This document shows, one piece after another, positions 841-56,500 of a stretch of 56,933 bases of DNA. The DNA lies in contig DGWX01000062.1 of the NCBI GenBank assembly GCA_002395405.1, positions 1 to 56,933 on the forward strand, in the 5' to 3' direction. The DNA is from Christensenella sp. UBA4247. GTDB lineage: Bacteria > Bacillota > Clostridia > Christensenellales > CAG-1252. Under the pieces are notes generated by a model. It had not been told where the DNA came from. It did not search any database and saw nothing but the letters and a program-made list of their open reading frames with translations. Both the position numbers and the translations under genes were made by a program. How positions within the stretch are numbered: the first letter of the stretch is position 1; the number at the start of each line of letters is the position of its first letter.

Positions 841-853
841 GTTTTACGCCCTC

Positions 854-1555: not shown

Positions 1556-1576
1556 GTTGCCTCTCCTTCCCTTACT

Positions 1577-6758: not shown

Positions 6759-6873
6759 AACCTCCTCCTTCGCCGATTTTCCGTTAAAAAATCACTTTTT
6801 TAGCCCGATTTTTCCTCTCAAACGGCACTTTTTCACGCAAAAAAGATACCGTCACTTACAGTTAGGCTATTTA

Positions 6874-6902
6874 AGCATATCACGCGACTTTTCAAATTGC
6901 AA
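6874..6902 (-). promoter_or_regulatory. Candidate sigma-70-type promoter for the dgt-dnaG-sigA operon
   Basis: The minus strand reads TTGCAA (6897..6902), a 17-nt spacer, then TGATATGCT (extended -10; the hexamer TATGCT is at 6874..6879). This is about 115 nt upstream of the dgt ATG. A second TTGCAA hexamer lies at 6915..6920. The call rests on consensus matching only. Confidence 0.3.
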
Positions 6903-6932
6903 GCATTATTTTTATTGCAAAATGATTTTTTT

Positions 6933-6964
6933 CAAAAAAAAGAACCGACGGAACGTCCGTCGGT
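6933..6964 (-). terminator. Rho-independent terminator downstream of the ECF-S-like gene
   Basis: On the minus strand there is a 9-bp GC-rich stem (ACCGACGGA/TCCGTCGGT, 6944..6952 pairing with 6956..6964) with a 3-nt loop. It is followed directly by TCTTTTTTTTG (6933..6943) and lies about 37 nt after the TAA stop at 7003..7005. Confidence 0.8.
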
Positions 6965-7002
6965 CTCCCGTAAACGATCGATAGGATCCATTCTTTCGTT
7001 TT

Positions 7003-7686
7003 TTATTCTTTCTCTTCCCCTTTTTCGGTCGGCGCGGCTTCTTGCCCTTCCGGCATATTCACCGCCGCGTCCTCGGCAGCGGGCGACTTTTTCTTTCTCT
7101 TGTCTTTCCCGAGCGCCAAACGGAGCGCCGTACAAACGATGGGCGTAATAAGCGCGCACGAAGCAAGTTCGATCACGAAATTTACGCCGAGAAGGCTGAC
7201 AAGAAATGCTTTTCCGATCGTAACGCCGCCGAAAGTCTTCCCAAAGTTAAACGCCGCCATCATGGATACGACGAGCGCCGTGTTCGTTACGACGCCGCAA
7301 AGAGCGGAAACCGTGCTTGCGATAAACGTGCTTGCGTCGTCGCTTCTGTTTTTCAAAAGTTTCTTAACGAGCTTAAACGCAAAATAAGCGGAGATCGGAA
7401 TGATGAGCCTCGGCACGATTGATACGAGAGGATTATAAAAAATCGGGGATAAAAGCCCCGGACGGAGAAACGCCGAGGTCAAAGACGCAAGTCCGAAACA
7501 CAGCCCCGAGAACAGTCCCATTCCAAACCCTTCCACGTCCGCCGCGATAAAGATCGCGATCAGGGGAATAAACGCAACGTCGATCCCCATAAAATTGATC
7601 GGTACGAATACGAAGAGCAAGATCAAGGACAAAAACAAAGCGGCAACCGCAATATCCTTTGACGTGATCTTAATTCTTTTGGTCAT
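7003..7686 (-). CDS. ECF-transporter S-component-like integral membrane protein with an unusual charged C-terminal tail
   Basis: 227-aa ORF with an ATG at 7684..7686 after GGAGG. It has about six hydrophobic segments. NPLVSIVPRLIIPISAYFAF and GVVTNTALVV resemble S-component (PanT/RibU-like) motifs as I remember them. The last ~35 aa (GKDKRKKKSPAAEDAAVNMPEGQEAAPTEKGEEKE) are basic and then acidic. Confidence 0.55.
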   Translation of the reverse strand: MTKRIKITSKDIAVAALFLSLILLFVFVPINFMGIDVAFIPLIAIFIAADVEGFGMGLFSGLCFGLASLTSAFLRPGLLSPIFYNPLVSIVPRLIIPISAYFAFKLVKKLLKNRSDDASTFIASTVSALCGVVTNTALVVSMMAAFNFGKTFGGVTIGKAFLVSLLGVNFVIELASCALITPIVCTALRLALGKDKRKKKSPAAEDAAVNMPEGQEAAPTEKGEEKE

Positions 7687-7705
7687 TTTTGCCTCCGAGG
7701 GAACG

Positions 7706-26426: not shown

Positions 26427-26507
26427 ATTGTTTACCTCTGTTTCTATTGTACTATGTCCGTCGGGCATAAGTAACTTAAATATACTTAATATTATTATTT
26501 ATATGCG

Positions 26508-29500: not shown

Positions 29501-32500
29501 TTGCTCCATTCTACCGCGGGCAACGTCATCGCACTGAGGTAGCTGTTTTTATCCATCGCCACCACGACGTTTTCGGGGAGACCCGCCGCGCCGAGGAGCG
29601 TATTGTAAAGGAAGCCTTCTTCCGCGACGGCAGAAAGGGCGACCGCGCGCTCCACGCGGGCGTCGAGGATCACCCTCTGATAACCGCCTTCTGCGTTTCC
29701 GACGAGAAGTCCGAGCTTGGTATATGCCGCGCCTTGATAACCGTAATCGATCGCAACGCTCGACCAAAGAACTTTCAAAGTCGCGCTGTCGCCTCCCTCG
29801 AAGAGAACGGTCAACATTTCGTCCGGTTTCTTCGTTAAGCCACCGATCTCACCGTACGTTTTTACGGTAAATCCTTCTTCCATAACGTTTACGCCGTCGA
29901 TCAAAAGGCCTTTGATCGTTCTGTCCTTGACCCTCAGTTTGATTCTTTGCGCCTGATAGCCGCCCGTTCTGTCGCCCAGGTAAGCGGTGATCGTATATAA
30001 GCCGCCCTGGAAGAATCCGATCGCGTCGTTTCCTTCCGCTTTGACGGCGTTCGAGATGTTCGCGGTCAATTTGAGTTCGCCCGAAGTGTTATCGGTAAAG
30101 GTAACGCTCGTAGATTGCGGCAAGGTGCTGTAATCGTAAGGATCGATCTCGAATTCTTCGACCGAAACCGATTGCACCGTCTTATCGAGGACCCTTACTT
30201 TAATGCGTCCGGGTTGATAGCCGCAAGAAGAATTTCCGATATACACGAGCACGTCTTCTCTGTAACTTCCGCGATAATTGTAATCGATAGACGCTTTGCT
30301 CCAATCGAGACGGAAGGTAGAACGGATCGCGTTACACGAGCAACCGCAATCGCAATCGGAAGTAAGAACGCCCGTGTTCGGATCGACCGTTCCGCAGTAG
30401 CCGCGCTCCACGCAAGAAGCGCAGGTACAGCCGCAAACGTCGGGCGTAAGCGCGTAATACTTGCCCGTTTCGAAGTTATAACCGACCGCGCCGCCGACGT
30501 TTACCGTCAACGTTTGCGGGAGAGAGATCTGGTAGGGATTGATCTCAATGACGACGTCCTCCGGAACCGTCAAACTGCGGAACACGGTCAAAACGTCAAA
30601 GCTGTACGTTCTGTCTCCCGCTTTTTCGCTTCCGAGCGAGAAGGAGGCTTTCACGGGAACGTTATTGCCGTTCGCGTCTTTACGATATTCGAGATTCCAA
30701 TTCGAGATCATCTTGATCATCGGAGCGGAAGACGTAAGCGCGTTTACGCCCGTTCTCTCTCTGAATTCGAGATACACGTTGTTCGGGAAAGCGGAATCGA
30801 GATACGCGTCGTTTACGATCGCGGAGATCAAATCGCCCTTTTGTCCCGTTTGTACGTCGTAAGAATAGATGGCGGGAACGTACCTTCCGCTTCCCACGGA
30901 TACCGTCTTTAACACGCGGTTTTTAACGACGACCATAAATTCAACGTTGATATAGCCCGTGCGCGCGTTGCCGATCTTCAAGATCGCACCGTGCGTATCC
31001 GGATTGTATCCGCCGTACACTCCGCCTTCGAGATCGATCTTAACGTTGCGCATATCCCATACCGCGTTGATATAGGTATCCGTTCCGTCGTTAAACGCAA
31101 GGCGAACGGTCGAAGGCAGATCGTACGAGTTCTCGTAAGGATCGATCTCGATGCGGTAACGCTCGTAATCGATTTCGAGGTCGTCCGTAACGTTCGCTTT
31201 ATCTTTGGACACTTTTACGTTATCGATATAAAGCGCGGTCGCGAGTCTCTTATAGATCTTAACGGGAACGGTAATGATCTGATAACCGCCGATCGCGTCG
31301 CCGATGCGCGCGTCCGCCGTAAAGTCTTGATCGTCCCAATCGGGGAAGTCGATCGAGTTGATATCGGTACGGTAATTCTCGTTGATCCAAGAAACGTTCA
31401 TCGACCTTTCCGTTCCGTCCTTAAAGGTAACGGTAACGACGGAGGCGAGATCGTTGTCCGAATAGACGTCCAATTTTTGCTCCGTAATAGAAGAACCTAC
31501 GATCTCGCGATTGAGAATGCGAACTTTAATATCGGTATAAGTTTGATAACCGCACACGCTGTTACCCGCGCGGATCGCCACGGGGAACTCCTCGAAGAGA
31601 TCCGAACCGGAAGCGCTCTTGAAGCCTCTGTATCCGTTGATCACGTTACTGATATCCCAAATGACGTCCACAACGCCCTTCTCGCCGTTCGAGAAGGTAA
31701 CGTTTACGCGCTCGTAATAATTCGCTTCGAGCCTCGGATCCACGCCGCCATAGGGATCGAAGATAATGGTGTTTTCTTCGTTCAGCTCAACCGACGCGAT
31801 CTCGCGGCATGCAACCGTTACGGGGACGGAATAGGTTTGATAGCCGCCGTACTCGTTTCCGAATTTAACGGTAACGAAGCAGCTTCCGCCTTTGTAGTTC
31901 CAGATCTTACCGATTTCGGTAATATCCCAAATCAAATTGCTGAAAGTATGCGTCGAGTCGTCCTTAAAGACGGCGATCGCGCTCTTAACGTAAGGCGAAT
32001 GAACGGTTGCGCCCGAAGCGTCCGTATAATCGTCCATCGAGAGCGGGTTGATCGACTCGTCGTACGGATCAAAGGAAAGCGCCTCGATCTGCAAGTTCTT
32101 AATGATCTTGCTCTTTACGACGACGGTAAACGGAACGAGCTGATAGCCCGCGCTGTCCGTTCCGACGCGCGCGTAAGCGGTAAAGGTTCCGCCCTTGTAG
32201 CTTTGATCCACTTCCGAAAGATCCCAAGTCAACGGATATTGACCGCTGTTTTGAGACGAGAACACGACCGTAGCTTTGTTGCCGCCCGAGGTGTTTTCCG
32301 GATACCACTTCGCGTCCACCGCATTCTCCTCGTAAGGATCGAATTCGTATTTCGCGCGAACCGAGGTCAGGTCGATCGCGGTGACCGATCTGTCTTCGAT
32401 CGTAATGGGAAGGCGGATCGTTTGATAGCCGCCGAGTTCGTTTCCGACCTTCAAGCTGACGTATTGCACGCCCGCGTTGTATTTAACGGAAACGGAAGAC

Positions 32501-35500
32501 GCATTCCACTCAACGTCCTTATCCGAGAAGGTGTAAGCGATATTCGAGCCTGCGTCGTAAGTAACTTTGACCGTCTTGGGATAGTTGTTATCATCCGTCG
32601 GATCGTATCCTTCGATACGGCTCGAACCCTTGATACCCGCAACGACGATATCGCCGGTACGGGTCAAGTACATCGGATCGACGTCCGTAACGATATCGAG
32701 CGCGGTCGTATCGAGCATAGACGCGGTAAACACGCGCTCTTTGATCTTTACGAACACACGGAAGAATTGATATCCGATATTCTCGTTTCCGTAACGGAAA
32801 GTCGCATACGAGCTGTTGCTTCCGAGATAGGTATTATCCACGTTTTCGAGATTCCAATCCACGAGAGTCTTTTTGTAGATCCTCTCGCCCGATTCGTCCG
32901 TTTCTCCTTCAAAGGCAAGTTCGACATAACGCGGATAGCTGTACAAGCTCTTACTTTCGGGCAGTCCGTCCACCGCCGCCTTATAGGGATCGAATTCAAA
33001 CGTATAGCTTTCGTCGATCTTGTAATCCACAATAAGCTCACTCTTGAACACGATCGGAATATGCGGATAGAGATGATATCCGATCTCGCTGTTTCCGATA
33101 TAGGCGTCCGTATAATAGGTCGCGCCCGCGTAACCCGAGGTAAAGTCGGATTCCGTCCAGCGGATCTCGTACTCATGAACGCCCATCGTTCCGAATTCCG
33201 CCGTAACGCGATCGGGGAGGGTCGGATGATCGCCCGCGGCGAAGGTCAGGAAGTTACCGCTGACCTGCTTGCCGTTCTCCGTCCAACGGAAACCGAGGAT
33301 CTCGGAGATGGGTTGCGGCGTGACGATGATTTGAATATCGACGTGATAGTTCGCCGTATCCCCCGTTCCGTACGTCAAATGCAGGTTATATTTTCCTCCG
33401 GCGTAGGAATCGGATACTTCGCTGACGTCCCAAGTAACGACTTGACCGCCCGCTTCCGTTCCGTCAAACGCGTAATACATTCCGTTCTCGCCGTAGCCGT
33501 TCGTCATGTAAACGTTGATGATCTTCGGCAAATAGTCTTCGAGATCTTTGACCTTATCGGGCGTAATGGTCAGCGGGAGTTCTAAGTTCTCGCCTTTTAT
33601 GATCGGCGTCCAAACGCCGTTTATCTCCGCATACTTGGGCAAGCGGATCGCGCTGTACGGAACTTGAAGCGGAATTTCTTTATTGTAATTCAAAACGCTT
33701 CCGAGGAGATAATAGGTGATGGCGATCTTATCGCTGCCGTCCGAGGGGCGCGCGATCGATCCGGGAACGGCGTTCGAAGCGTTCGGAGTCGAGCCTTGAA
33801 TTACGTCACCCGTCGGATCCACGAGGAAGGTGCTGTCTTGCCATACGATCGAAACGGTATCCTCTTCATCGTGCGGTTCGAGCGTTCCGGAAACGTATTT
33901 GACTTTCGCCTTATCGGGAAGATCTTCGAGATAATCCGCAACGCCGTCGCCATTTTGGTCGATGTTAAACACGTCGCCGAGAGTCCTTACGACGCTGCCG
34001 TCAAAATCCATCGTGACGCTGTTTTCGTCCACGACGCCGAGACGAATGCCCGTCGAAGTCAAAACGATCTGATAGAACTCGCCCGTTCTGTTATTCGCCA
34101 TACGGAGCAAGATCTTTCTGAACAGAGACGTTCCGCCGTATCGGTTGGAGTCGAATTCCACGAGGACGTACGCCGTGTCGCCGCGCTTCAAGGTAATGAA
34201 AGGCAGGATCTTGGCAAGAACGTGGATGACCTGATCGCCCAAGACGGAGCTGATCGCCGCGTCGATCGCGCCGTTCAAAAGACGAACGAGTACTCTCGTA
34301 ACGGTATTGCCCGGATCGATCGCGTCGTGGATCGCGCCTTTCAGCATTCCGAGGATGCCGCGATAGGTAGCATAGGTCATTTGTGCGGGAACCGAGGCAG
34401 GCGTTCCGGTAAATTCGGCGATCATTTCGCTCAAAGAATCCAGGATGCCTTTCAGCGCAAGCGCGTCGATATCGATCCTGACGCTGCTGACCGTTTTCGC
34501 GATACCGCTGTTTGCGTTTTGACCGTAAGCGCTTTGCAAAACGCTGTCCTGCTTGGATTTCTCCATGATCGTGCCCGTCGTTTCGTCGATCATACCGTAT
34601 CCGAGATTGAGTTCGATACCCGTGATCGGATGCTCTTTTGCGGCTTTGATCGCGTCTTCATCGTCCGCTTCCTCGTCCAGGGGTTCCGGTTTGTCATACT
34701 TGGATACCGTTTTTCCGGAAACCATATCCGAAATATCGATGGACGCGACCTTGAAGTCGATACCCGGTCTGTAATCTCCGAGGAAGATAATGGAGATCTT
34801 AAACTGGATATAGAGATACAAGTCCGAATCACTGTAAAATACCGAAACTCTGTCGATATGACCCGCAATGATCTGCAACGCGTCGGACAAAAGGCTCGCT
34901 ATACCCGAAGCGTAATTCTCCGCAGCGATCATTCCGATATCCTTTCCTATGCTCACGATACCGGGCGTATCGGTGTAATCGGTCAACACGTCGAACAACG
35001 TTGCGCGGATCGCGTGTATAAACTTGGAATCCGCACGGGAAAGTTGCAAAAGCACGGAGCGCTTTTGTCCCGAGACCACCGTTCCGACTTTGTCGGTGTA
35101 ATCCATATTTTGGGTGATCTTAATGCGCATCGAATCCGGTCTGAACTCGTCGTCGTTATCGGTTTCGACCTTGGGCGGATATAAGCCGTCCACAACCGAT
35201 TCGAGCAAACTGCCGAGCCAGCTTTGACCGTTATGGTTGGCAAGACCGATCGCACCGCCGAGCGGAAGCGCGCTGTACTCGGATGTATCGATACCCAACG
35301 CCATGAAGTTCGAAGAAGTATAGTCGATCGAGAAGGAAGAAACCGCGAACGAGATCGTGTTCGAACGCGTGTTCGTTCCCAATCTTTCGGGCGCGTCGAT
35401 CGTAATGCCGATTTCGTCGATCCCTTCGTCCAGTTTGAGTTTGAGGGTCGCGCCGATCGTCTTCGGCAAGCCTACCCTGTCGATCGCCTGACTGACCACG

Positions 35501-38500
35501 CCTTCTTGGATATTAAAGAGTCCGAGGAATCTTTCAAGCATTCCGGCGTCCAGATAGAGAGAAGCTTCGTAGGGCGTTTGCGGTTTCGAACCCGCGGCAA
35601 GCGCTTTCAAAGTCAAAGTCAAATTCGCGTTATCGATCGTGTACTCCTTATCCGATTCGGCGGAAGAAGATTCTTCTCCATCTTCCTCGCTTTCCTCTTC
35701 GTCTTCCGTAACGTTCGTAGCTTCACGGATCAACTTTTCGATGATCTCTCCGATGGATTCGACTTTGAGAACGTCTTTCATGATCGTCAATCCGCCTTCT
35801 TTAAGATCGGCGTCCAAAACTTTCGAAAGAGTTTGTTCGAGGTTGATACCGCTCGCGCGCAGTTTTACGAATCCGAGATCGGACAAGTCGAGATAGAGAC
35901 TGCCGCCGTCCTCGTCCAAAGTCGAGCCGTCGTAATAAATGCCCAACAATGTCAGGTTGTTATAACCGTCCGAGAAGTTGACCTTGATTTTGAAACAGGT
36001 CTTCGAGAAGTTCTTAAAGTTCAGCGCAAGGTCGATATTGATATTAAACGACCAAGTGGACGCGGCGTTTCTCTTAACCGTGACCGAACCTTTCTCCGAA
36101 CCGAGAATGCATTCCACGAGCGCTTCGAAGAACTCGAAGGTCTGATTGCGATAGGCGTCAAGCGATAAGCCCGAACCCGTATTCGCGGCAACGGCGAAAT
36201 CGAGAGTCGCGTTCAATTTGAAGTTCAAAACGTCAAGCTGCATGATGTCGGAATAGTTTTCGAGCTGCTTGTATCCGTCGAAGTTCGTATTTCTCGCGCC
36301 GACGTAGTAGGTAAAGGTCCCGCCCGATTTTCCGGCATAGGTATCGGACGCGTTTTTGGAATCGGGGAGGTAAATATGCGTGCTGACGGAAGAATCATAT
36401 CTCTGATTGATTCCGATCCTATTCGTCGGACTTCCCACGCGCAATTTCGCCCCGTTTACTTTGGCGGTAACGCCGACCCAGTTCGATCCCGTCGTTCCGA
36501 AATCGTCTCCCGAAACTTTTTTATTCAGATAACCGTTCAGCGTAATCGACCAACCGGAAGGCGAAGCGCTGTCGTTATTGTCATAATAGAGTTCCGCCTT
36601 AAAGGTTTTCTTATAATCTTCGATCGGGCCGAGGATCGAACTCGGAATATTTACGCCGAGCATATCGATCAAAAGCATCAACATCGATACGTTGAGTCCC
36701 ACGCCGATCTGCGAATTGCTCATCGACAAAATAAAGCGCGCCGCCGTTCCGTAATCCGTCTTCATATCCGATCCGGTGTTATTGATCAAATCGATGTAGT
36801 TTTGCAAAACGGAGGGGATCGCCTCTTCGTCTTCCGTATCGATTCCGAGGAGGAGCCAAAGCGCGTTTTTGAGTTTTACGCCGTCGCTCGCAGCAGCGGC
36901 CTCCGCGGGTGCCTCGGCTGCCGCCGCCTCCGCCGCGGAATCAGACGACTTCGTGTAATCGTTCCAGAAACTGATGTCGAACACGTCCGCCAAAACGCCC
37001 GAAAGATCCAGCCCCGTAACTTTGAGTCCGCTGAGACCGAGCATCGGCAATGCCGCGTAAGCCGTTTCGTTCGCGTTCAAATAATACAAACCGATGAGAA
37101 GCGTCGTTTGATTCGTGGACGGGTTCACTTGCGCGATTTCGAGAAGAAGCTCGGTTTTGCTGCTGTCAGCCAAATCCAAGAACATTTCGAGGCTGATCCT
37201 GAGATTCAATCTCGTGGTTTCTTCGCCGTTATCCACGATGAGGTTCGCCGTATCGTTTTCGGTCAGTCCGAGCGACTTTTCAAACAGCGATTTCATCGCG
37301 ATCGTAACCGTTTCCACGCCGCCCGAGATCGCAAGATCGATCGAGGTGGAGAGATGGATCTCCATTTCGTCGATCGTCGGGTATTTCAGATAACCGGAAA
37401 GCTTAGACGCAAAGTTATGCGCGTTATTGAAGGAAGTATAGCTTGCGCCGGCGCTGCTGACGACCGATTCCGCCTTAAAGCGAGTTAAAGTAATACCCAC
37501 GCTGTAATCGTCGTTCTCGGAAGCGAGTTTGATATACGTATCGCGCATTCCTTGCGCCGTGGTCGCTTTGAGTTCCGCTTTGATGTAAGCAAAGTTATCG
37601 TTGCAAAGATAGGTTTCGTATCCCATCATCAACAGCAAGTTATTAAACACGTTCGGGTTAAGAACGATCATACTCATCTTGTTTCCGAGCTGGATCGCGG
37701 AAACGAGGCTGTCGATATACGGGGTATATTGCGCCACGCTCTTCGGCAACGAAGTGGATCCGGAGCCTCCGGAAGGAAGAACGGCTTCGTCCTTGCAATC
37801 GCATTCGCATTCTTTATTTGCGCAAAGCAGCACGCCGTTTTCGCCTTTACAGCTACCGTTATCGATACATTCCTGATCGGTACAGCCGCAGGAAAGCATG
37901 CAATGACGGCAAGTACATTGCTCTCTTTCCGACTGACCGGCAAAATCGCAGTACTCGTCAAACACGCAGTAATGGTTCGGGCTTCTCTGGCAGTAAACGC
38001 TCGTACAAACGTAGCAAAGCAGATAACCGCCCTCGCTCATACAGCCGCCGTGATCGATACACGCTTGGTTCGTACAGCCGCATTCGAGATACGTGCAATC
38101 GCAACCGCAGTTTTCTCCGTCGCAGATACGAACGCCGTCTTTATAACAGCCGCCGTTCAAAAGGCAAGATTGATCGGTACAACCGCATTTCAATTTGCAG
38201 TGCGAGCAAGTGCAATCCGTTCCCGCGCAACGGACGACTCTCTTACCGAACGCGTAAGTAATACAGCTTCCCGCTTCCACGCAATCGGGGTGCGAGCAGC
38301 CGCAGGGAAGAACGATCGCGCCGAGCGAAGAATAGGTATCCACCGAGCGCGCTCTTTCAAACGCGTTTACGATGGGCGACACGATATCCGCTTCGATACG
38401 GTAACTTCCGAGCTCGAACGCGTCGAGGTTGATATAGAGATAGCTCGTAACGTTCTCGCCCTTTCCTTCGTAATAAACGTAAGCGCACTTTGCGCCCGCC

Positions 38501-41500: not shown

Positions 41501-44500
41501 AGAACGCCTTTTACGTCGATCGATCCAAGCGAGATATTGCCCGCAATCTTGTAAGCGAACGTCGCCCTTCCGTCCGTAAAGGCAAGATTGAAATCCACCT
41601 GTTCTCCGAGGATAGCGGAGATCGTATTTCCGAGGGCGATCACCGTTTTACTCGTATCGAAGCTCATTTCTCCCGAGAAAGCAAAGTTAACGTAGCTGTC
41701 TTCCGTCAGCTCGCTGTAAGTGGCGAGAGAACCTACGAGGTCGGTCGGTACTTCCAAAAGATTTTTATTGAGATCGATCTTGATATTGTCTATCGTCATG
41801 CGGATATACGAAGGCTTATCGGCGTCCGCGTCGTTACGGAAGTCCACTTCGGCGTTGATCGAAATATCGCTGAGCGCGTCCACTTTGAAACCGACGCGCA
41901 ACGTTCCGATGCTATCGATCCCGCTGAGTTCCATATCATAGCCGAGCGCAATCAAAATATTCGTAATGAGCGAAGGCTTGAATTCCGCCTGTACGCCCGC
42001 CGCTTCGGATATCGTTATGCTCGTAATATGTTTCGCAATGCCGAAAATAATATCCTCGGTGCTGTTAAACATTTCTTCCGCAGTCTCTTTATCGTGGCAA
42101 CTGCCGTCGCCGCAGTTTTTACAAGTCGAGAAGCAGCTTCCTCTCTCCAAGCAAACGGGATCGGTACAGCCGCAAGAAAGAGGAACGACGAGCGTCGTAG
42201 TAAAGTGACAGCTTCCGTCGCAGTTTGTCGGGCAAGTCGGAGTACAGCTTCCGCGTACGAGACATTCTTCTTCCGCGCAACCGCAGATCAACGCTCCGCT
42301 TTCCGCCGCGGAAGACGCGTGATGATCGCAGGCGCAGTTTGCTTCGCAGCGCGTCCCGTCGCACACGCCCGCTTTTACGCAAGAGGCGCAGTTACACTCG
42401 CATTCGAACGCGGCGCACTTGCAACCGCAATCTTCTCCGTCGCAGATGCGAACGCCGTACTCGTCGTAACAGCTGCCGTTATCCACACACAAAACGTTCG
42501 TACAGCCGCAAGGCAGCGGATCCACGGTATAAGAGAGGAAATCCTCGATGGTTACGCCGCCGAACCACGTTCCCTTGATACCGAGCGCGGGGATCTTGGC
42601 GTAGAGTTTCGGGGCTTCGTCTTCCCCGTCGTAGAACAAGAAGGCAAGGACGGAAGACGCGGTCGGATTCGCTCCTTTCGTTACGGTCAGCATGATCTGC
42701 GTCCTTTCGAGGTTGTTCATATCGAGAGAGATCTCGACGGCAACGTTCAAAAGGGTATTCTCCGTCCAAGTCGTTGCGTCCACAACGATCTGCATCAGGG
42801 TATCGATGCCGGGGAACAAACCGTTCAGCATCGGCCCCAGCTCGACCTCGGTGTTCTCGGGATGGATCTCGATATGCATCTCCGCTTTCGCCGTGATCTT
42901 CTGCAAGCGATCCATCGGTTGATAGGTCGTAAAGTCGGCGGCAACGGAAGGATCCCTGACGTCTCTGACGTCCATCATTTGCTTTCCGCTTCTGATCGTC
43001 AGCCCGCCGAATCCGATCCCGATGGTCGAATAGTTCCCCGTGTACGAACCGTTCAAAGATTGTTCGATGGCGATATTCGCGCGGAGAGCGAGATTGGCAA
43101 GGAAGTCGTGGCTCGTTCCGCTGTACATTTCGTACTCGAAGGTCGCGACGGGAGAGGTGCCGGAGGTATAGATCTTAACCGTCCAAGCATAATCGGGAAG
43201 CGCGGAAAGTTTTTCGTTTCCGTCGCTGAACGTTATGGCGCCGTTGGAGATCGTCATATAAGAAGCGATCTCGCTTCCGGTAAGAGTCGTCGTTCCGCTC
43301 TTTCCGATAAGCTCAACTTTCGTTACGTTCTGCGCCGTGATCCCGCTGACCTGAACGGTCTTCTCGCGCGTAATATAGTTAAGCGCAAAATCCACCGCGA
43401 TCTTCGGAACCTCGATATCGTCTATGGTATTGCCCGAGATCAGGTAGAATACCGAAGCGAGGAACGTGTCGGACGAACGGAAGGAAAGCCCTGCCGGCGT
43501 AAAGGTAACGTTATCAAAGATACCCGAAATCGAGTTGCTGTAATAGGTACGGCAAGCGCCGTTACAGTATTCGCAGTTCATCGGGCAAGTTCCGGCTTTG
43601 ATGTGATTGGGATTGGTGCAGTAGCAAGCGAGGAGCCCGGTATGGCACTTACATTCGTTCAAATAAACGCAGCTTGCGCCCGCGATCTTATACGTTAAAG
43701 TACGGAACGGCGAAGACGACCCGGTATAGATTTTGACCGTCCAAGCATAATCGTCCATCGCGAGCAGATAATCGTTCGCGTCGTTAAACGCGATCGTTCC
43801 GTCCACGATCGTCATGTATTTTTTCCAATCTCCGTTTGTCAAAGCAGTATTCGTTCCGCTATGCATTCCTACGAATTCCACCTTCGTTACGGCGTCTCTT
43901 ACGAGTCCGCCCACGGAGAACAAGTCGTTTTTATCGCAATAGCAGATCGGCGTAACTTTGCCGTCTATGAGCTTAAAGGTCTTGATACATTGACCGTGCA
44001 AAATACATTCGGGGTTGCGACAATAGCAAGCAAGGCGATACACGAGCGAGCAAGTGCATTTTTCCTCTTCGCAGCCCGCGCGATGGATCGCTTCGATACG
44101 AACGATCTTGGGAAGCGAGGTCGCCTCGTCCGAAACGAGGGTCGCGCGCTCCGCGTTCGTGAGATCGGATCTTTCCGCTCCCTTTTCACCCGCAACGTAT
44201 CTATAATAGGTATCGTTTTCTTTATCATAATAAACGGCGCCCGTTTCTCCCGCTACTTGATACACGTTTCTGTAACCGGCAACGCAGCCCTTTTCCAAAC
44301 ATTCCGCATTGTTGCATTCGCATTTTTCCGGCGCGTGGCAACTGCAGCATTCCTCACCGTAATCCTTGCAGTAAACGCCGAATTCACCGCACGACCCTAT
44401 GGAAACGCAATACGGATTGGTACAGCCGCAAGGCAAAACGCAATGTTCGCAAGAGCATTTTTCATCGCAAAGTTTTCTGCCCGACGCGTCGTAACAGCCA

Positions 44501-47500
44501 CCGTTCAGTTCACACTTCGCGCAAGTGCAACCGTCTTCCAGTTTTGTGCAATCGCAACCGCAGGTTATACCGTCGCAAGCGCGAATACCGTTTACATAAC
44601 ATCCGCCCCTTGCCTGACAGGCGGGATCGGAACAACCGCAAGTCAAAGACGTGCAAGAACAATCACAATCGCCCTCGCAGATCTTTTTGCCGTTTGAATC
44701 GTAACAGCTTCCGTTTTGAACGCATTCCTCGCAATCGCAGCCGCAACCTTTGACCACGCAGCACGTGCAATCGCAACCCTCTTCGCAGTGCTTGATCGAA
44801 CCGACGCAAGAACCGTTCAAATAGCATTCCATATTGTTACAGCCGCAAGAGAGGCGGGTGCAACCGCAATCGCAATCGCAGCGTTTTACGCCGTTTTCAT
44901 CGTAGCAGCTGCCCATCGCCACGCATACGGGATGGATACAAGTACAGCCGGGAACGACGCAATGCGAGCAATTGCAGTTCGAATCGCAAAGGCGAGTCAA
45001 TACTCCGTTTACCGTTCCGTAGCAACCGCCGTTTTTGACGCATTCCGCGCAATCGCAGCCGCAATCGAGATCCGCCGTCGTTTCGCTTTCTCCGCTTTCA
45101 TTCGATCCGCCGAGCAGTTTTCCGATATCCACACCCGTAACTTTTACGCCGTAAAGCCCGAGAAGAGGCGCGTCGATATAGATCGCCTGATCCAGCCCCA
45201 CGAGATAGCCGCGGATAAAGAGATTTTCCACACCGCGCGACGTCATATATAGGTCGATCAAAAGTTCGCTTCTTTCGAATCTTTGAACGTTTAAGTTACC
45301 CGAGATATGCAAGCGGAAAGCGGCGTTTATAACTTCGCTTTTCAGCGCGAAGCCTTCGCCGAATATATACATAAAGATATCGTCCAAATTCAGCCTTTGT
45401 TCGATAAATTCCGCGCCGAGATACAATTCCGTATCCACGTAAACGTATTCGAGAACGAGGGGCGATTCTTCCGCATAATCCAAAAGCGTCGTAAATTCGG
45501 TTACGTTTTGCGTAACTTCGGGGCGGATATTGACTTCGGTGAATCCGAAGCGTTTGATCCTAAACTCGCCCGAAATAAAGCCGTCTTGCTCTTCGTTCTC
45601 GAAATCGAGATCGAAGGTCATGAGGTTTTTACGGATCGCGAGTTTAACGCCCGTAAAGTCGATCGGAAGTTCGATTTCGAGCGCGGACGCGAATTCGGAA
45701 AGCAAAACGTCGAGGAAGTTATTGCTTACGTTTACGATCGCGCCCTTCTCGCCGTAGGAAGGATTGGAACCGTCCGTGATCACGATGCCGTCGATGATCC
45801 TCGCAACGAGGGTCGCATAGCGAGCGGCGGCAGAGGAAGCGAGGCCGGAACTTTCCGCCGCCGAAACTTCCGAGGTGGAAGCCGAGGGAAGCAGATCGGA
45901 AATAAACGAGGTGTCCACGTTCTTGATCAAAACTTTTTGAACGTCGAACCAAGGCAAATAGAGATAGATCTCTCCTTGGAGCATATCCATATACGCTTGA
46001 ACGACGTAATTATCGTTCCAAACGAGTTCGATCAATATTTCGCTCTTTTTGATCTCCTCCACACAGATCTTCATTTCCACGTTGAGCTTAAAGTCGCCGC
46101 GCAAACCTTGGAAAGTAACGGGAATGTTTACGTTGTCCGCAACGGTCTTGATGAGTCCGCCGAAATCGTAAACGCCGTCCGGGAAGGAGTACGATACGTC
46201 GCCCGTCAGCTTAAAGTGCAAGTAGCTGTAATCGTCCGTCGTGTTGTAAAGGGACTTATCGAATCCAAGGTCCTTTTGAACGAGGGCAACGCCGTAATCG
46301 TGCAGTTTCAAAGAAAGTTCGTTATTCGGAATATTCGCTCCGTTTCTCAGCTCCGTTTCCAGCCCGATCTCCTGATGAATGAGATCGGCGTACAATTCGA
46401 GATATTCCATATCGCCGAGGCTCAAAGTACTTCCGAGCATATAATCGGTAAAACGCTCGACCACGTCGCCCGCGAAGTGAACCACGATACGACCCGCCGA
46501 AGTCAGACTTATGCTTTCGATAACGGAAAGCGCTACGTCCAAAACGTCGCTCGAGCCTTCTTCCTCATTTTCGCCTTCCTCTTCCGCCGCGGCGATCGCA
46601 TCCGTACCGATCGCGTTATAAATCGCGCTCGAAATGCGTTCGGAGAGTCCGTTTATCGTTTCGGTGAGTTCCTTTCCGAGAAGTTTGGAGAGATCGAAAT
46701 CGAAGGTCATATTGAACGTATCGTCGATCCAGGGGAGATAGGCAACGAGGTCGTATTCTCCTCCGTAATACAAAACGATTTGATCTTCCCCTTCGCTCGT
46801 AATTCTGAGAAGGATCTCGGAGCGGTTTACGTCTTTCAAATGAACGTTGCCCGCAACGGTCAGCGTAATATCGCCTTGAATATCGCCGAGCAAGGAAACG
46901 GGTAAACGCTCGCCGCCGAAGAGTTCGGAGAGGAATCCGTCCATATAATACACACCCGCTTCCGCCGAGTTCTTAAAGAGCGCTTTAAGATCGAGGCTAA
47001 ACGATACATGCAGATATTCGAGATCGTTCAAATATCCGTAATCGGACGTATCTTCGATCAAACCGTTGATCAAACCACCGAGAACGATCTCCGGCTTTTC
47101 CACGGAAAGCGCGACCGAAGTATATGCGGGATCGCCTACGCCATCTACCCCTTTGAACGTTAACGTCGCGCTGACGCCGTCTTCCTTATGCAAGCGCGCG
47201 TTAAAGCTCATATCGAGCGTGGCGTCTATATCAAGGAGCGAAAGAGCTTTCGCAAACATCGCGCTCTCCATCTTAATAAGGAGTCCGCGCGCGTTATAAA
47301 TCAAACTGAGCGTTTCGTCGAGGGAAGACGAGCAATAGCTGCAAGAGCAACCGTCGTATCGATCTCCGAGCGCGTTTTTACGGCAAGGATGCGAATAATC
47401 GAAGGAACCTCCGTGCGATACGCATTCGGGATTCGTACAGCCGCAGAGAAGCCCGCTTTCCGCCGCCGCGCTTCCGCCGTTCGGAATAAGATCCGCGAGG

Positions 47501-50500: not shown

Positions 50501-53500
50501 TCGTAAACGGTATCGCCTTCTCTCGTAACGAGAAGATCGGAGATCGTGATCGTGGCTTGCAGTTTCAATCCGGAAACCATCTTACCGATCGCGTCTTTCA
50601 AAGCGCTTCCTTTCAGAGAAGCGAGATTCAAGCCTTCGGCTTTAAGCCCGCTTGCGGCGAGTTCGACTTTTACGGAATAATGCGCGTGATTTTGCGCGTC
50701 GGAGGTAAGAAGGAATTCCAGCGCGCCGAGATAACCCCCTTCGGTCGAAGCAACGTGCTCGCCGATGATCTCGCCCTGCTCGTTCATCGTGGCGCCCGTT
50801 TTCGCTTCCACGCTCATTTCGGCGGCGATATGGAACGCGCCCGCTTCGCCGAGAGCGCTCGCACCGGCGGTAATACCTTCGTTTCCTATGATCTTATCCT
50901 TCCATTCCGTTCTTTCCGTAAGGGAAGAATCGAAGAAAAGCGAAGCGCGATGCACCGCGACTTCGAGGAAGGAATTCTCGTTCATTTGTAACACGACGCT
51001 AAGTCCGTCGGAAGAAAGAGTCGCTTTCAGCCCGTCGGTCGGAGGCACGAGCGCGGAAAGTCTGTAACTGCCGAGTCGCATCAACGACAGCACCAAATCA
51101 AGCGCTCCGCCGTCCGCGCTGACAACGAGACCGTCCTCTTCCGAGAACACGACTTGCAGGATCTTCGCCAGCAATCCGCTCGTTTCTTCAAGGGTTCCGT
51201 TTCCTTCGCTCTCCGCCGCGGAAGGCTGCATCCTTTGGAGATAAGGCGCGATAAGATCGAGAACGGCGCCGTGCAATCCGAGTCCGGAAATGCGAACGGC
51301 GTTCTCCGCGCCGTAAGCGGAACCGCTGATATAGAGCGCTTCCTCCTTTCCGAATTGCGTTTCTTCCGCCGAATTGTAATAGAGAGAGATCAAGCTCGAC
51401 GTTCTGCCGTAAAGTTCGCCGTCACCCGTTTTCAAATAGAAGGAAAGCCAAAGTTCGGCGTCGGGTTCGAGAAGCCCGTTCAAAGTTACGTTCGCGGCGA
51501 GTTCCAGCCCGAGCGCCATCGTAACGAGGTCTTCCGCCGTGTTGTTTCCGATTTGTACTTTCAGCGCTTCGCCTTCGATATTTTCGCTTACGAAATTTGT
51601 TATGGTCTTCGCGTACTCGCCGTCCATAGAGAAGGTAACGTCCGCCGCAACGGAAAATCCGACGGAAAGCTCTCGCCAATCGCGGAATCGGGAGAGATCG
51701 CCGAACAGATCGCGCGACTTGAATCCGACCGCGAGATTTCCGATCCCGATGCCGAGATCGAGGTGGAGATCGTCTCCGTCCTTCGCGAGAATGCCGATAT
51801 CAACGGCAACGTCTTCCAAATTTACGTTTGCGGACACCACGAATTCGGGCAAGATCAATTTCAGTCCGAGGAGCGACGTAACGACGGCTAAACTGTTCGC
51901 CTTGGTCACCACACCGACTACGCCCACCGTTCCGTCCAAATACACATAATCCACAACGTCGTTTATGATTTCGAGAACGCTCTTGCGCGCGTGAACGCGG
52001 CAGTCGCAACCTTCGTTCAAAACTTGCTCGCCGTTTTCCTCGTGGAAGCAACTCTGAAGCGTCTTACACGCGGGGTTCATACAGCCGCATTCAAGATCGG
52101 GATAATGGCAAGTGCAGGTGCAAGAAGAAGAACAGGTCGCGGTAGCGGCGCTCTTTCCGCACGTTCCGTTTTGCAAGCATTCGTCGCAATTACAGCCGCA
52201 AGAAAGAACGGGTTCGCTTGCCTCCGCGGAAGAGATCGCCCCGCGGATATATTCCATTAACGAAGTTCCCGTGATCTTGATTTCCGGAAGTCCGATCAAT
52301 CCGAGCGAAACGTAAGCGGTATCGGTTTCGCTGTCATAGGCAACGTAAGCGTATTCCGAGCCGTCTCCGCCTTTTACAGACAGCGCGAATTGCAGGAATT
52401 CAAAGGAGGCGAGATCCGCGTTTACGTCGAGACGGATCGTCAAAGGCGCGTTCAAAGCGGCGCCCACGTTTCCATCCGCGCCGAGATATAAAGATAACTC
52501 GCTCGCAATGTCGCCGATCAGATCGTCGAGTTTCAGCATATCCAAAACGCTGCGGATCGAATCCGTCGCGTCATAACGGAATGTGCCCGTTTCGAGATCC
52601 AAAGTAACGGTAATTCCCGCCGAAACGCGGCTGAGATCAAGGTCGGTTCCCCTGCCGAGGAACACATAGTCTTCTTTGGAAAGCCCGTTTCCGTACATAT
52701 AAGAGGAAAGCGAAAGGCTCTTATCCAGTCCGAGAACAATGCCGTCGATAGACGCGTTTACGAAAGCCCCGGGGAGAACCGCGCCGAGGTTTACGCTAAC
52801 GCCGCCGTCAAGCGTAATGCCCACTTTCACGCTTTCTATGAGCTTCTCGAAATCCAAAGATCCGACGTTCAGCTCCATTGCGGAAATAACGCCCGCGATG
52901 AGCGCGCCCGAAATCGAAACGCTGATCCCGTTTTGATCCAGCATCAACACGGCGAGTCTGCCGAGAGATTCCGCCGTCTCTTCCGCTTCGGACAAGGATT
53001 CGAATGCCGCGGCTACTTCGGAAAGGAAGAGAGCGTCTATATCCACTGCGTAAGAGATCGGTTCCACGCCGAGCCAAGGCGCTCTGAGATACGCCGTGCT
53101 CGAAGGTCCGTCGAAATAAAGGGCAAGCATCAACTCTCGCGTTCCGAGAATGCGATCGTCTTCAAAGAGCGCGAAGTAGATCTCCGCGGTCGGAACGACG
53201 GCGGAAACGGTCGAGAGATCCGAGAAATCCATTTCCGTCAGATCCACGTTCGCTTTCAAGTCGAAGGACAGATCCCAGCGCGTCATACGGCGAACGTCAA
53301 TGCCGAACTTAGCGCCGTCCACGAACTGCCTAACGAGCGCGGCGAGCTTTTCGTTTCCTTGCTCGAAAGACACAGTCAGCGAGCCGCTGACTTCCGCGGA
53401 AACCTTTCCGAACGATCCGAAATTCAATTCGCCGTACTGCGATCGATCAAGACCGAGATCGCGATGGGCAAATTGAACTCCGAGGTTTCCGACCGTCAGA

Positions 53501-56500
53501 TCCACGTAATTATTTTCGTCATAAGCGAGTTTTACGCCTACGTCGATTCCGTCGATAAAGTTTACGCGAAGAGACGGCGTCAGTCTCGGGAGCGAATCGC
53601 CGAGTCCGCCCACGCCGAGGATACTCATTACGCGCTTAAAGCTGTCTTGCATTAGCGTAACGCCGATGCCGCGCTTCGTAAGATCGATGCGATCGAAAAG
53701 CCCGATGACGCCGTCAAGCGCGTCCGCCTCTGCCGCGCTTTCCGAAACGCAGTGCGAACAGGTGCAACCGTAAGCGCAGCTCGATCCGTCGCAATAAGCG
53801 GCATTCAAACATTCTTCGCAGTTACAACCGCAAGAAAGATTGGATACTTTGATACGGAATTTCGGAACGTCCATTCCGTAAACGGCGCCGTCGCTTGCGA
53901 GAGTGGAAAGACCCTCCGCGTCCACGTACAAATACAATCCGTCGAAATAGACTCTGACGAGAAGATCGCCGTCTTTCAAAAGCTCTATGCGCGCGTTAAA
54001 ATGCAACCCGTCCGAAAGATCGAAATTCGAACTGACGCGCAAAACGAATCGGCCCGAGAAATCTTCTTTAACGTCGAAAGTCAGCGCTGTGTTCATCAAT
54101 ACTTCGCCGATGCTGTTCGGAACGATCCCTCCGAGCTCTTCCATAAAGTCGGTAAAATCGTACTGCATATCGGAGAAGGCGTAATCGAGATCCGCTTCGA
54201 ATTGAACGTAGATCGAATCGAGCGAAGTCGCGTCGCGGTATTCCCTGCCGGCGCTCTCATATACGCTTTGCGGAACGACCTCTCTTCTTGCGAGAGTTGC
54301 GGAAATATCGGATACTTTCATAGCCACGTATGGGTTTTTATATCCGAGCGCGCCTTCGGAGGTATCGAAAGCGATCTTCGCGCCGATCTCGAATCCGTCC
54401 ACGAGGCGAACGTAAACTTTGCTCGAAGAATCGAGATCCAAAACGGTATCGGTGTTCTTATCGTCCGTCAAAAGATCGATCAAAGTCGCGATAAAGCGAT
54501 CGGCGAGAAGAACGGAGATCTCGTCTCCGATATATACGCCGCCCATCATTCCGCCTACGATATCCAAGATTTGCTTACTCGAAAGCGCGCTCTCCGCCGC
54601 CGCGGGGATCGAGGGCGTTTCTCTTTCCGCTCCGATTGCGGTTCGGAAGAAATCTTCGAGCTTGATCTTATACATAAACTTCGGAAGCGTCGTTCCGTCC
54701 GCGCTGATAGAAAGCCCCGTTGCGTCCACAAACACGGCGCTTTCGCCCGCCGCGTATTCTCCGTAATAAAGCGCGATCACAAGGTCGCCCAAAGCGCCCG
54801 ACGCGTCTTGCTTATAGATCTTTACGGCAAGCTCGACGTTCGCAAGGTTCAGTTCGACGTTCGCGCCTCCGAAGAAGTTGGACATTTTGATAGGATCAAA
54901 AGCGATATTCGCGTCCACTTGAATATCCAGCCCGCCCGAGATCGGCTCTTTTACTCCGAGCACGCAGGCAAGTTCGGCAACGATATTGCCGAGCGCGTCG
55001 CCGAGATTGACTTCTTTTAAGCTGCCCGTATCGCCCGAAAGGGATAAGAGGGCGGAAAGGGAAATATTCGAAAATTCTTCGAGCGAAGAATAACCCGCCG
55101 AAGAAAAATCGTCTTTATCCACGATAAATTTCGGTCTGTATCCGAAAGAAAGTTGATCCAAAGAAACGCGAATAAACGTATCTTCGGTTAGTTTAACGTC
55201 GGCGTTCAGGAACAAGCCGAACCCGGAGATCAATCCGAGTTCCACTCTGATCGAGCGGATCGCCACGTCCACGCTGGACAAGGTCTCGTTTACTCCGTTT
55301 ACGATACTTGCGAACAAGTCGAATTTATCTTGCGCGGACTTGATGTCGGCGGCATAATCGGCGATCAATTGCTCTTTTGCGCGAAGAAGGATCTCTTTTC
55401 CCTCTTTCAACCTGTCGAGCTTGTTGTTCTCTTCGGTGATCCTGCCTTCCAAGCGAACGATCTCGCCTATTCCGATACTGCCCGACGATCTACCGTCCGC
55501 AAGTTGGCGTTCGAGAGCGGCGATCTCGGCTTCTTTTTCCTCGATCTCCTTCTGTTTCGCTTCTATATCCTTCTCCACGGCGGCGACCGACGTGTCGTTC
55601 GCTTCAGCGTCGATGGCTTTTTTAAGATCGTCCGACGCGTCGCGAGCCAAGCCTTCCACAACGGACAAAATAACCGAACGATCCATTGTTACCGCAACGG
55701 ACTTACGCCCGCCCGGACGGCGTTCCATCGTGTTCAAAACGCGAACGATAATATCGAACACGTCAAGCTTCGCGTAACTTCTGTCTTCTCCCGCCGCCGC
55801 CACGTAAGCGTACGTTCCGGTTTGCGTAATGTTCGAAAGCGCCTCGTCATAATCGTCGCCCTCTTCTCCGAAAGTTTCCACGATAAGCGAACGGATCGCT
55901 TCGCCTTCCGCGGTCGCTTCGCTCGCCGTTCCGAGAAGCGATGCGAGCGTTTCGGTGACAAAGGAATTCAAAACGTCCGCAACGTTCAATCCTTCGTACA
56001 CGAATTTCGGGAGATTCGCGTAAGAGAAATCCACGTACAGGGAATTTTTGGTCCCTATATAATAAACCGTTCCGAGAAGGACGTTTCCTTTCGTCGTAAC
56101 TTCATAAAGGTAAAGCTCTATGTAGTTCTTTTCGTTATAATTCCAGCTGATCTCGGCGTTTACGTCCACATACAAGCCGATCGTTCCTTCTCCGAGCGTC
56201 AACGTACGCTCGCCGAACGATCCGAGCGACGAAAGCCCGAAGAACTCGGTCAGGACGCCGCCGATCAAATTGTCGATCGTTACCTGCTTTTCGCTTCCGT
56301 TTTCAAGATCGACTTTGAAAGAAACTTCGAAGTTCGTAAGCCCGAACTTGCGGTAATCGGTAAACTCGGGGAACACGATGGCTTCCACCTGACGGGAATC
56401 GGAACCGTAATACTCGTTGTCCATAATGAAGTCCACGGCGAAGGTTTCCGCTCCGTAACCGAGATCCACGTCGATATTCGTCAGCTTTCCGTCCGAAACG

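Follow-up and report, generated by a model that had tools for sequence, protein, structure and literature searches.

Why should a bacterial protein of more than 10,000 residues, almost devoid of cysteine along most of its length, carry at nine separate places a short module that is nearly a quarter cysteine, and do such modules belong to the surrounding folds or are they elements in their own right? The question is raised by contig DGWX01000062.1 of Christensenella sp. UBA4247 (assembly GCA_002395405.1), whose positions 1 to 56,933, the whole stretch analysed, we call the window. An earlier note on this DNA had described about 23 copies of the module at nine loci, placed almost always at module boundaries, and had suggested that they are interchangeable with plain acidic linkers and act as hinges, stiffeners or metal sites. 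A single open reading frame (ORF) hosts all nine loci: ORF A, 26536-56925 on the minus strand, encoding at least 10,129 residues. The reading that we favour, as a whole by a modest preference, is that of a lineage-restricted mini-domain, inserted at the junctions between the supermodules of this giant protein, cross-linked, and serving as a structural spacer. Residue numbers below follow aa = (56925-nt)/3+1; the N-terminus of the protein lies beyond the window end, so that some 147 residues, the signal peptide region among them, fall outside the window. That ORF A might be non-coding or artefactual was ruled out by orthologs conserved over more than 7,000 residues.

The module is a unit of about 34 residues with eight core Cys and an optional ninth at position 5 (consensus C-G-C-T-[NDC]-P-x-C-[VLI]-x-N-G-[SG]-C-Y-D-x-x-G-x-[RK]-x-C-[DE]-G-x-x-C-x-C-x(1,2)-C). 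A profile hidden Markov model (HMM) of the unit gave 22 domain matches in A and none in the neighbouring ORF B, in agreement with manual parsing; a degenerate unit at aa 4434-4458, missed by the HMM, brings the total to 23. All nine ranges named earlier are indeed Cys clusters of this one minus-strand frame, and the units per locus (1, 2, 1, 7.5, 1, 1, 4, 4 and 1 for loci 1 to 9) match the earlier counts. The concentration is extreme: 187 of the 204 Cys of A fall within 821 array residues, or 8.1% of the protein (binomial p ~5e-181), which makes Cys 22.8% of residues inside the arrays and 0.18% outside them. The loci are as follows.

53749-53832, minus strand: Cys locus 1 (aa 1032-1059), one unit with nine Cys and one His, directly after a supermodule end
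52000-52200, minus strand: Cys locus 2 (aa 1576-1642), two units, the second without C5 and C8
47332-47445, minus strand: Cys locus 3 (aa 3161-3198), one unit with seven Cys, without C4, preceded by SAAAESGLL
44284-45063, minus strand: Cys locus 4 (aa 3955-4214), seven full units and an N-terminal half-unit (CECNNAECLEKGC), 63 Cys
43936-44073, minus strand: Cys locus 5 (aa 4285-4330), a C-terminal half-unit (CEEEKCTC) and one unit
43552-43671, minus strand: Cys locus 6 (aa 4419-4458), a C-terminal half-unit and one degenerate unit
42097-42510, minus strand: Cys locus 7 (aa 4806-4943), two canonical units, an SSAAESGALI linker and two variant units
37795-38304, minus strand: Cys locus 8 (aa 6208-6377), four units, 36 Cys in four species
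30334-30435, minus strand: Cys locus 9 (aa 8831-8864), a single unit in a loop of an immunoglobulin-like (Ig-like) module

Aligning the copies and plotting a logo, as proposed earlier, gave a consistent eight-Cys pattern from 97 instances, drawn from A, three orthologs and database fragments. It opens with Cys at position 1 (100%), Gly (84%), Cys at position 3 (100%), T/N/S, then N (43%), D (28%) or C (23%), Pro (39%), any residue and Cys at position 8 (100%). V/L/I (81%), any residue, Asn (35%), Gly (80%), S/G (74%) and Cys at position 14 (95%) follow, and then Tyr (47%), D/G, two variable residues, Gly (68%), Val, R/K, L/I and Cys at position 23 (93%). The last part reads D/E, Gly, any residue, and Cys at positions 27 (88%), 29 (86%) and 31 (94%, with His in 6%), each separated by one variable residue; a His is often contained in this part or trails it. 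Position 5 is mostly N or D, with C (or H) in about a quarter of units (for example, at 53749-53832, 44947-45063 and 38188-38304). Where C or H stands there, units tend towards a longer tail, C-x-C-x-H-C, or one more Cys in the tail: by eye this holds for 8 of 9 unit families with C/H at position 5 and for 3 of 8 others, a statistically weak difference. In one relative (P0002) the tail His is lost where position 5 is Cys. Position 5 and the tail residue may possibly form a ligand pair, a suggestion that is itself statistically weak.

Where do the units sit? The 230 residues upstream of five of the loci turned out to be mutually homologous, and an HMM of the last ~100 residues of the module, which closes with '...lYYdg....lYVdlP.LGl..ikv.G.dl..ll', found 19 copies between aa 226 and 7043, their ends about 275-300 residues apart (supermodule ~280 aa). 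With 19 ends so spaced, about 19 beta-rich supermodules in a row make up the N-terminal two thirds of A; a C-terminal third of Ig-like modules (about 18, each of ~100 residues) follows. A low-confidence AlphaFold model agrees with the beta-rich character but does not prove it. For the supermodule, Pfam offers no family and the databases hardly any relatives. Examples of a supermodule end and of junction linkers are these.

45085-45342, minus strand: supermodule end upstream of locus 4 (module X C-terminus, ...AIYIDAPLLGLYGVKVTGVDIGKLL)
45826-45876, minus strand: plain acidic SAAES linker (SASTSEVSAAESSG) at a supermodule end without Cys unit; the collinear junction of the relative P0004 has a Cys unit
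36871-36960, minus strand: plain acidic/Ala-rich junction linker (DYTKSSDSAAEAAAAEAPAEAAAASDG) at a supermodule end without Cys unit
51181-51240: a further SAAES-motif junction linker, within the supermodule region

Loci 1, 2, 3, 4, 7 and 8 begin 0-15 residues after a supermodule end and so occupy six of the 19 ends. The remaining 13 have no Cys unit; there the junction is an acidic Ala/Glu/Ser linker, often with SAAES. The tetrapeptide AAE[STAG] occurs eight times in the supermodule region (35797-56250, aa 226-7043), always at junctions, against 1.2 occurrences expected. Orthologs keep the linker motif S-A-A-E-S/T as well, and it could mark a site of processing or modification. When twelve pairs of supermodules were aligned with MAFFT, the Cys arrays fell into the same columns as the acidic linkers. 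An acidic SAAES-type stretch is nevertheless kept beside the arrays at loci 1 (where the stretch SESAAEADALDG comes after the unit), 2, 3 and 4, and inside locus 7. Because this stretch persists beside arrays, the units were added at linkers and the linkers were not replaced. The proposed interchangeability of Cys units and acidic linkers therefore survives in part: the two share alignment columns and 13 junctions are plain, but loci 1-4 and 7 have both.

The claim that the units lie almost always at module boundaries also needs qualification, even though the seven junction strings quoted in its support (KVSNLS-CGC and the others) are all present. It holds for the six loci just named. It does not hold for loci 5 and 6, which are not downstream of any supermodule end, or for locus 9, where a unit with short flanks stands between two strands of an Ig-like module of ~100 residues. 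The C-terminal third of A is made of such modules, with the pattern ...DPY..LP..V.V.F.DG....V.WD.S.V...Y.GG.Y......GN..GGYQ..., and the host module of locus 9 is the following.

30157-30558, minus strand: Ig-like module of ~100 residues hosting locus 9 (INPY...GNSSCGYQ...)

Loci 5 and 6 become easier to understand together with locus 4. An N-terminal half-unit (C1-C4, aa 4202-4214) ends locus 4, and C-terminal half-units (C5-C7) begin locus 5 (aa 4285-4299) and locus 6 (aa 4419-4433), with two stretches between them.

44074-44283, minus strand: Cys-free insert of 70 residues, between the half-units that end locus 4 and start locus 5
43672-43935, minus strand: beta-rich (Ig-like) module of 88 residues between loci 5 and 6, with a paralogous copy at aa 4515-4609

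Because locus 4 ends and loci 5 and 6 begin with half-units, the three loci are probably one array of about ten units, interrupted by two domains (70 and 88 residues) nested in unit loops. The unit may thus be a scaffold that tolerates domain insertion (43552-45063, aa 3955-4458). A further insertion lies in the third unit of locus 8 (37918-38013, aa 6305-6336). It has four extra conserved Cys, arranged C..C....C........C....C, and varies among orthologs from about 30 to 60 residues, its variable part measuring 0 to about 30 residues and being longest in the uncultured Clostridia ortholog (L003).

Whether the units are separable from the folds around them is best judged from relatives, which are few. 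The unit profile (26 units) was compared with 1.84 billion representative proteins and gave seven matches at E<=1e-3. One was spurious, and the six real ones are all fragments, each from a giant protein of this type, annotated 'hypothetical protein, partial [Clostridia/Clostridiales bacterium]'. A word-indexed search of 5.8 billion proteins returned two relatives with an 800-residue query and one with the supermodule alignment, and with so few relatives the family is all but missing from protein databases. Scanning 185,579 species genomes added three orthologous loci, in Christensenella sp. UBA3217 (L001), Christensenella sp. UBA3798 and an uncultured Clostridia metagenome-assembled genome (MAG; L003); each is an uninterrupted ORF across the 21.5 kb fetched, with 51-55% identity to A. 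These three and A make up our four-species comparison. A literature search found nothing on giant or Cys-rich surface proteins of Christensenella.

One case is locus 9, where the unit is missing from UBA3217 by a clean indel of about 36 residues and the host module aligns on both sides. A second case comes from P0004 (L004; GCA_036648595.1, JAVWDG010000072.1), a distant relative rich in Lys, Asn and Ile. Two of its supermodules, one directly after the other, have their best matches at A 3543-3660 and 3825-3980, and it has one Cys unit at each junction; at the collinear junctions A has a plain SAAES linker and the eight-unit array of locus 4, respectively. The orthology of these junctions is supported by collinearity and, at 22-32% identity, is not certain. 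P0004 carries variant units with a C-x3-C-x3-4-C tail, which resemble the two variant units of locus 7 and are likewise placed after supermodule ends. As units follow supermodule ends in P0004 too, the association between unit and junction predates the Christensenella-like clade. Units also tolerate large insertions, in loci 4-6 and in the third unit of locus 8. The absence of units from 13 of 19 homologous junctions, the range of one to eight units per junction, the locus 9 indel and the differences in P0004 together support the view that the units are autonomous, insertable mini-domains, separate from the flanking folds. The earlier description of the units as separate inter-module elements thus stands on comparative evidence, including the 13 plain junctions and the locus 9 indel.

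The arrays are fixed in number. Unit numbers are the same at each comparable locus across the four species, and unit-specific oddities are kept as well. For A, UBA3217, UBA3798 and the Clostridia MAG, Cys counts are 7/7/7/7 at locus 3, 63/62/61/60 at locus 4, 9/10/10/10 at locus 5, 9/9/8/8 at locus 6, 30/31/31/31 at locus 7 and 36/36/36/36 at locus 8. In three species, locus 1 has one unit and locus 2 has two; locus 1 is a single unit in the relatives P0007 and P0010 as it is in A, and locus 2 has 15 Cys in each of three species. The arrays of UBA3217 and P0010, two MAGs of one species, are identical but for point substitutions at locus 7. Among the oddities are an invariant His before C5 at locus 3, a His in place of C3 in the degenerate unit of locus 6 in all four species, the SSAAESGALI linker inside locus 7, kept in orthologs, and the two variant units of that locus, each with seven Cys and an invariant C-terminal His (...CDGSCH). 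The Cys are 97.4-99.4% conserved, in contrast to the non-Cys array positions, which at 50-57% identity equal the protein-wide 51-55%. Units share only 60-75% DNA identity with one another, and Tandem Repeats Finder detected no array. By the evidence of these sequences the loci are old and stable, without expansion or contraction.

What holds the units together? His is the only other residue enriched in the arrays (2.56% versus 0.63%, or fourfold) and at 78% their second most conserved residue class. Twelve His that stand next to, or replace, a Cys are invariant in the four species. Cys and His also trade places: C8 of the second unit of locus 7 is His in some orthologs and Cys in others, and '...CTCSHC' at locus 1 of A corresponds to '...CTCDCH' in P0007. 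Odd Cys counts are kept across species in isolated single units (seven at locus 3, nine at locus 1), and the parity of locus 4 drifts among orthologs, as its counts show. Cys and His together range from 7 to 10 per unit, and a constant nine-ligand rule was accordingly rejected. Cultured Christensenella is a strict anaerobe. Cys is largely kept out of the exported proteins of Firmicutes, and in anaerobes Cys numbers show no bias towards even values (PMC2823432). The enrichment, conservation and swapping of His, the odd Cys counts and the anaerobic hosts incline us towards metal rather than disulfide. We would put metal-thiolate cross-links at close to an even chance and regard disulfide cross-links as rather unlikely. 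Among the three roles proposed earlier, hinge, stiffener and metal site, this leans towards metal-stabilised stiffeners.

Comparison with known families gave little beyond partial resemblances. Pfam hmmscan with both whole giant proteins (E<=0.1) and with five isolated arrays (E<=10) found no family for the Cys unit, and NCBIfam had no match for it either. Searches of PDB sequences, once with an array and once with the unit profile, gave no significant match; the profile listed the P-selectin epidermal growth factor (EGF) domain at E=3.5. With hhalign, the unit reached a probability of 0.3% against human EGF, aligning only CLLNGGC to CLHDGVC of EGF, and of 1.4% against human MT2A, with one aligned column. 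As far as its sequence indicates, the unit falls outside all described families, and we would class it as a new family of a generally familiar kind.

The nearest parallel in design is with EGF-like domains, in particular the eight-Cys integrin I-EGF and laminin-type EGF. These too are Cys-rich units of 30-40 residues arranged head to tail in very large extracellular proteins, and the likely common role is that of a stiff spacer. The first-half spacing C-x4-C-x5-C-x7-9-C is shared, with NP ahead of the second Cys and NG ahead of the third, which an aromatic residue and a D..G turn follow. The resemblance ends there. The six-Cys pattern C-x4-C-x5-C-x8-C-x-C-x8-12-C is fitted only by C2-C5 of the unit, which differs by its C-terminal C-x3-4-C-x-C-x1-2-C and its extra N-terminal C-x-C. 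Conserved His, odd Cys counts, the bacterial anaerobe as host and the lack of a confident EGF-like AlphaFold2 model set it further apart, and no EGF, hEGF, EGF_CA, Laminin_EGF or I-EGF profile matches it. Metal-binding domains offer a different set of parallels. The tesmin/TSO1 CXC (CRC) domain, pre-SET Zn3Cys9 and metallothioneins share the very high Cys content, CxC, CxxxxC and CxCxxC motifs, the Cys/His interchange and some nine-Cys units. The outer spacing of the unit, C-x-C-x4-C ... C-x2-4-C-x-C-x2-C, is like that of the CXC domain, which we take as a lead only. The unit differs from this group in having no profile match, eight Cys instead of nine, and a Gly/Pro/aromatic framework that suggests a hairpin-containing fold; moreover, those proteins are intracellular, nuclear or free and small, unlike a tandem spacer in an exported giant. 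The Myxococcus cysteine-rich repeat (TIGR02232 / DUF4215) is alike as a short, tandem, extracellular Cys-rich repeat of bacteria. Its Cys pattern is different, and no Pfam or NCBIfam match links it to the unit. Radical-SAM or RiPP-type (ribosomally synthesized and post-translationally modified) Cys peptides and ferredoxin-type Fe-S motifs were rejected, since the CxxCxxCxxxC pattern is missing and the window encodes no maturase.

In the reading that we favour, a self-contained mini-domain of about 34 residues with eight nearly invariant Cys, restricted to one lineage, would have entered either as single units or as fixed tandem arrays of two to eight (perhaps ten). Most insertions would have gone into the flexible acidic SAAES junctions between the ~280-residue supermodules of a giant exported surface protein in Christensenella-like Clostridia, and one into the loop of an Ig-like module. 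Cross-links between its Cys would hold each unit, most likely through bound metal (Zn-type Cys4/Cys3His) and less likely through four disulfides. Cross-linked in this way, a unit would make a flexible junction rigid and resistant to proteases, a spacer whose length and place along the molecule are set. The cross-linking chemistry, the rigidity and the spacer role are what we infer from the sequences. Going further, we suggest tentatively, at somewhat less than an even chance, that the arrays are chains of metal-thiolate sites, with Zn or another soft metal, outside the cell of a strict anaerobe, a new metal-binding fold that replaces disulfides to rigidify a giant protein.

The rival that deserves most attention retains this placement and this role and changes the bonds. 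The units would be EGF-like in the style of integrin I-EGF or laminin-EGF, with four disulfides each, and the array would be a rigid rod; tandem eight-Cys domains are well known as stiff stalks in eukaryotic extracellular proteins. Several observations that count against our own reading bear on it. The core Cys are even in number, and the four most canonical units (aa 4096, 4806, 6247 and 6346) have eight Cys and no His, which suits four disulfides equally well. The spacing C-x4-C-x5-C-x7-9-C, with ...NP.C..NG.C.[YF].D..G...C, is like the N-terminal half of EGF-like domains, which are disulfide-bonded with the connectivity 1-3, 2-4, 5-6; hhalign aligns just that segment, and the weak P-selectin match falls on an EGF domain. 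Structure prediction favoured neither chemistry and lent no support to independence of the units: an AlphaFold2 model of two units (16-row paralog/ortholog alignment) reached a mean predicted local distance difference test (pLDDT) of 61.7 and a predicted template modelling score (pTM) of 0.37, with zero matches in the PDB by Foldseek, and a 585-residue model of supermodule, array and supermodule (12-row alignment) reached pLDDT 45 and pTM 0.29, with all Foldseek matches at E>0.1 and template modelling score (TM)<0.15 and none significant. Finally, the signal peptide on which export depends is seen only in an ortholog of 43% identity, the window lacking the N-terminus of A. We still consider the disulfide alternative unlikely. 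Neither EGF, laminin-EGF nor any other Pfam family matched even at E<=10, and neither hhalign nor AlphaFold2 gave a confident EGF-like result. Isolated units keep their odd Cys numbers and array parity varies among orthologs, His is enriched, conserved and swaps with Cys, and the hosts are Clostridia with strictly anaerobic cultured relatives. Cys is generally avoided in exported Firmicute proteins, and in anaerobes no sign of paired Cys is seen (PMC2823432). Less probable again, and improbable in our view, is a functional rather than structural use of the arrays: metallothionein-like metal-thiolate clusters for sequestration, storage or detoxification, a redox role, or binding of a partner cell or mineral. 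Its appeal lies in the 23% Cys with CxC and CxCxC motifs, the enriched and conserved His, the roughly 187 thiols per exported molecule, and position 5, which alternates N/D with C/H as ligand positions can. However, similarity to metallothionein or CXC is missing, G2, P6, G12, Y15, G19 and the hydrophobic position 9 look like a folded mini-domain with a hairpin and not like a thiolate peptide, and the arrays lie at inter-module junctions instead of a distal tip, in a window whose gene content includes no metal-transport or redox genes.

The two remaining alternatives concern architecture and have been largely refuted. Copy numbers of one to about eight among loci, together with one versus eight units at a junction shared by P0004 and A, could point to dynamic, length-variable hinges, contingency-type repeats whose copy number changes between strains; an expansion and contraction of the loci had indeed been raised in the earlier note. 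Identical unit numbers in four species, identical arrays in two MAGs of the same species, the conserved idiosyncrasies of each unit, the low DNA identity and the absence of any array detectable by Tandem Repeats Finder make such turnover very improbable. Scarcely any weight remains for the idea that the Cys stretches are integral to the flanking beta-rich folds, for example as capping strands. It would explain why the first CGC comes 0-15 residues after the last strand-like segment of a supermodule at six loci, and why BLAST matches between paralogous junctions extend from the module end into the first unit; yet most homologous ends (13 of 19) do without a unit, a junction may have one or eight, P0004 differs from A at collinear junctions, and UBA3217 lacks the locus 9 unit in a host module that otherwise aligns.

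What kind of protein is the host? With more than 10,000 residues, beta-rich modules joined by linkers, Big_4 and Flg_new domains, a signal peptide in an ortholog and a second giant next door, it resembles the giant surface proteins of Gram-positive bacteria. It differs from them by a supermodule without Pfam family and by the lack of a C-terminal LPXTG or cell-wall anchor, and we know of no giant Gram-positive surface protein with Cys-rich arrays. Pfam hmmscan placed Big_4 (E=5.8e-28) and Flg_new / Listeria-Bacteroides repeat (E=1.7e-8) at the C-terminus of A; read directly, the C-terminal 480 residues end in a Flg_new domain and contain neither LPXTG nor a hydrophobic tail. The N-terminal ortholog P0007 (3,340 aa, 43% identity) is collinear with A, whose residue 1 corresponds to its residue 148, and has a signal peptide of typical Sec type (start MTKNLHTKLLLIVLLCVVVVLVAFA/C, cut ...LVAFA/C). 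Because P0007 carries this peptide, we infer that the ORF A protein is exported and located at the surface. A charged, heptad-like helical stretch at aa ~430-540 (55306-55638; EKDIEAKQKEIEEKEAEIAALERQLA...) breaks up the beta-rich supermodules and is also kept in P0007; DUF4407 matches it weakly (E=0.031, below the curated threshold). For the 585-residue model (aa 1311-1895, 51241-52995), the top non-significant Foldseek matches were TamB, LptD and ApoB100 (E 0.16-0.8, TM<0.15), all long beta-sheet lipid-handling proteins, a lead for supermodule likeness and not evidence.

The remainder of the window holds the following.

7737-26468, minus strand: ORF B, a second giant of 6,243 aa, directly downstream of A
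1-7700, minus strand: housekeeping cluster downstream of the giant genes (energy-coupling factor (ECF)-transporter S component, dGTPase-like HD protein, dnaG, rpoD/sigA, trmK, a NIF3-family protein and a zinc-ribbon protein)

ORF B is rich in Gly (11.7%), with 0.64% Cys, a YDG domain and no Cys units. It has an N-terminal hydrophobic segment and ends in a C-terminal transmembrane anchor followed by a Lys-rich and then an acidic tail. Only 67 bp separate A and B, which probably form an operon of surface giants. The cluster downstream of them is a Firmicutes-type chromosomal neighbourhood, and identical proteins in the same housekeeping arrangement occur in contigs of samples SRR873595, SRR5322622 and ERZ1756110.

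Overall, ORF A obeys the Firmicute avoidance of Cys outside its arrays, with 0.18%, yet has 187 nearly perfectly conserved Cys in 23 mini-domains. This mini-domain is unmatched in the domain databases searched, its real matches being confined to one Christensenella/Clostridia giant-protein family, and it illustrates neatly how a small, self-standing module can spread into the linkers of a giant modular protein. Both the new domain family and the new ~280-residue supermodule could enter databases. Christensenellaceae attract interest as heritable, health-associated gut bacteria. If the cross-links are metal sites, the units would be a strict anaerobe's answer, where rigid spacers are concerned, to the rule of 'no disulfides outside the cell'. 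Each molecule would then carry about 40-50 metal ions, and its stiffness, or the metal economy of the cell, could respond to the availability of metal or sulfide in the gut or rumen.

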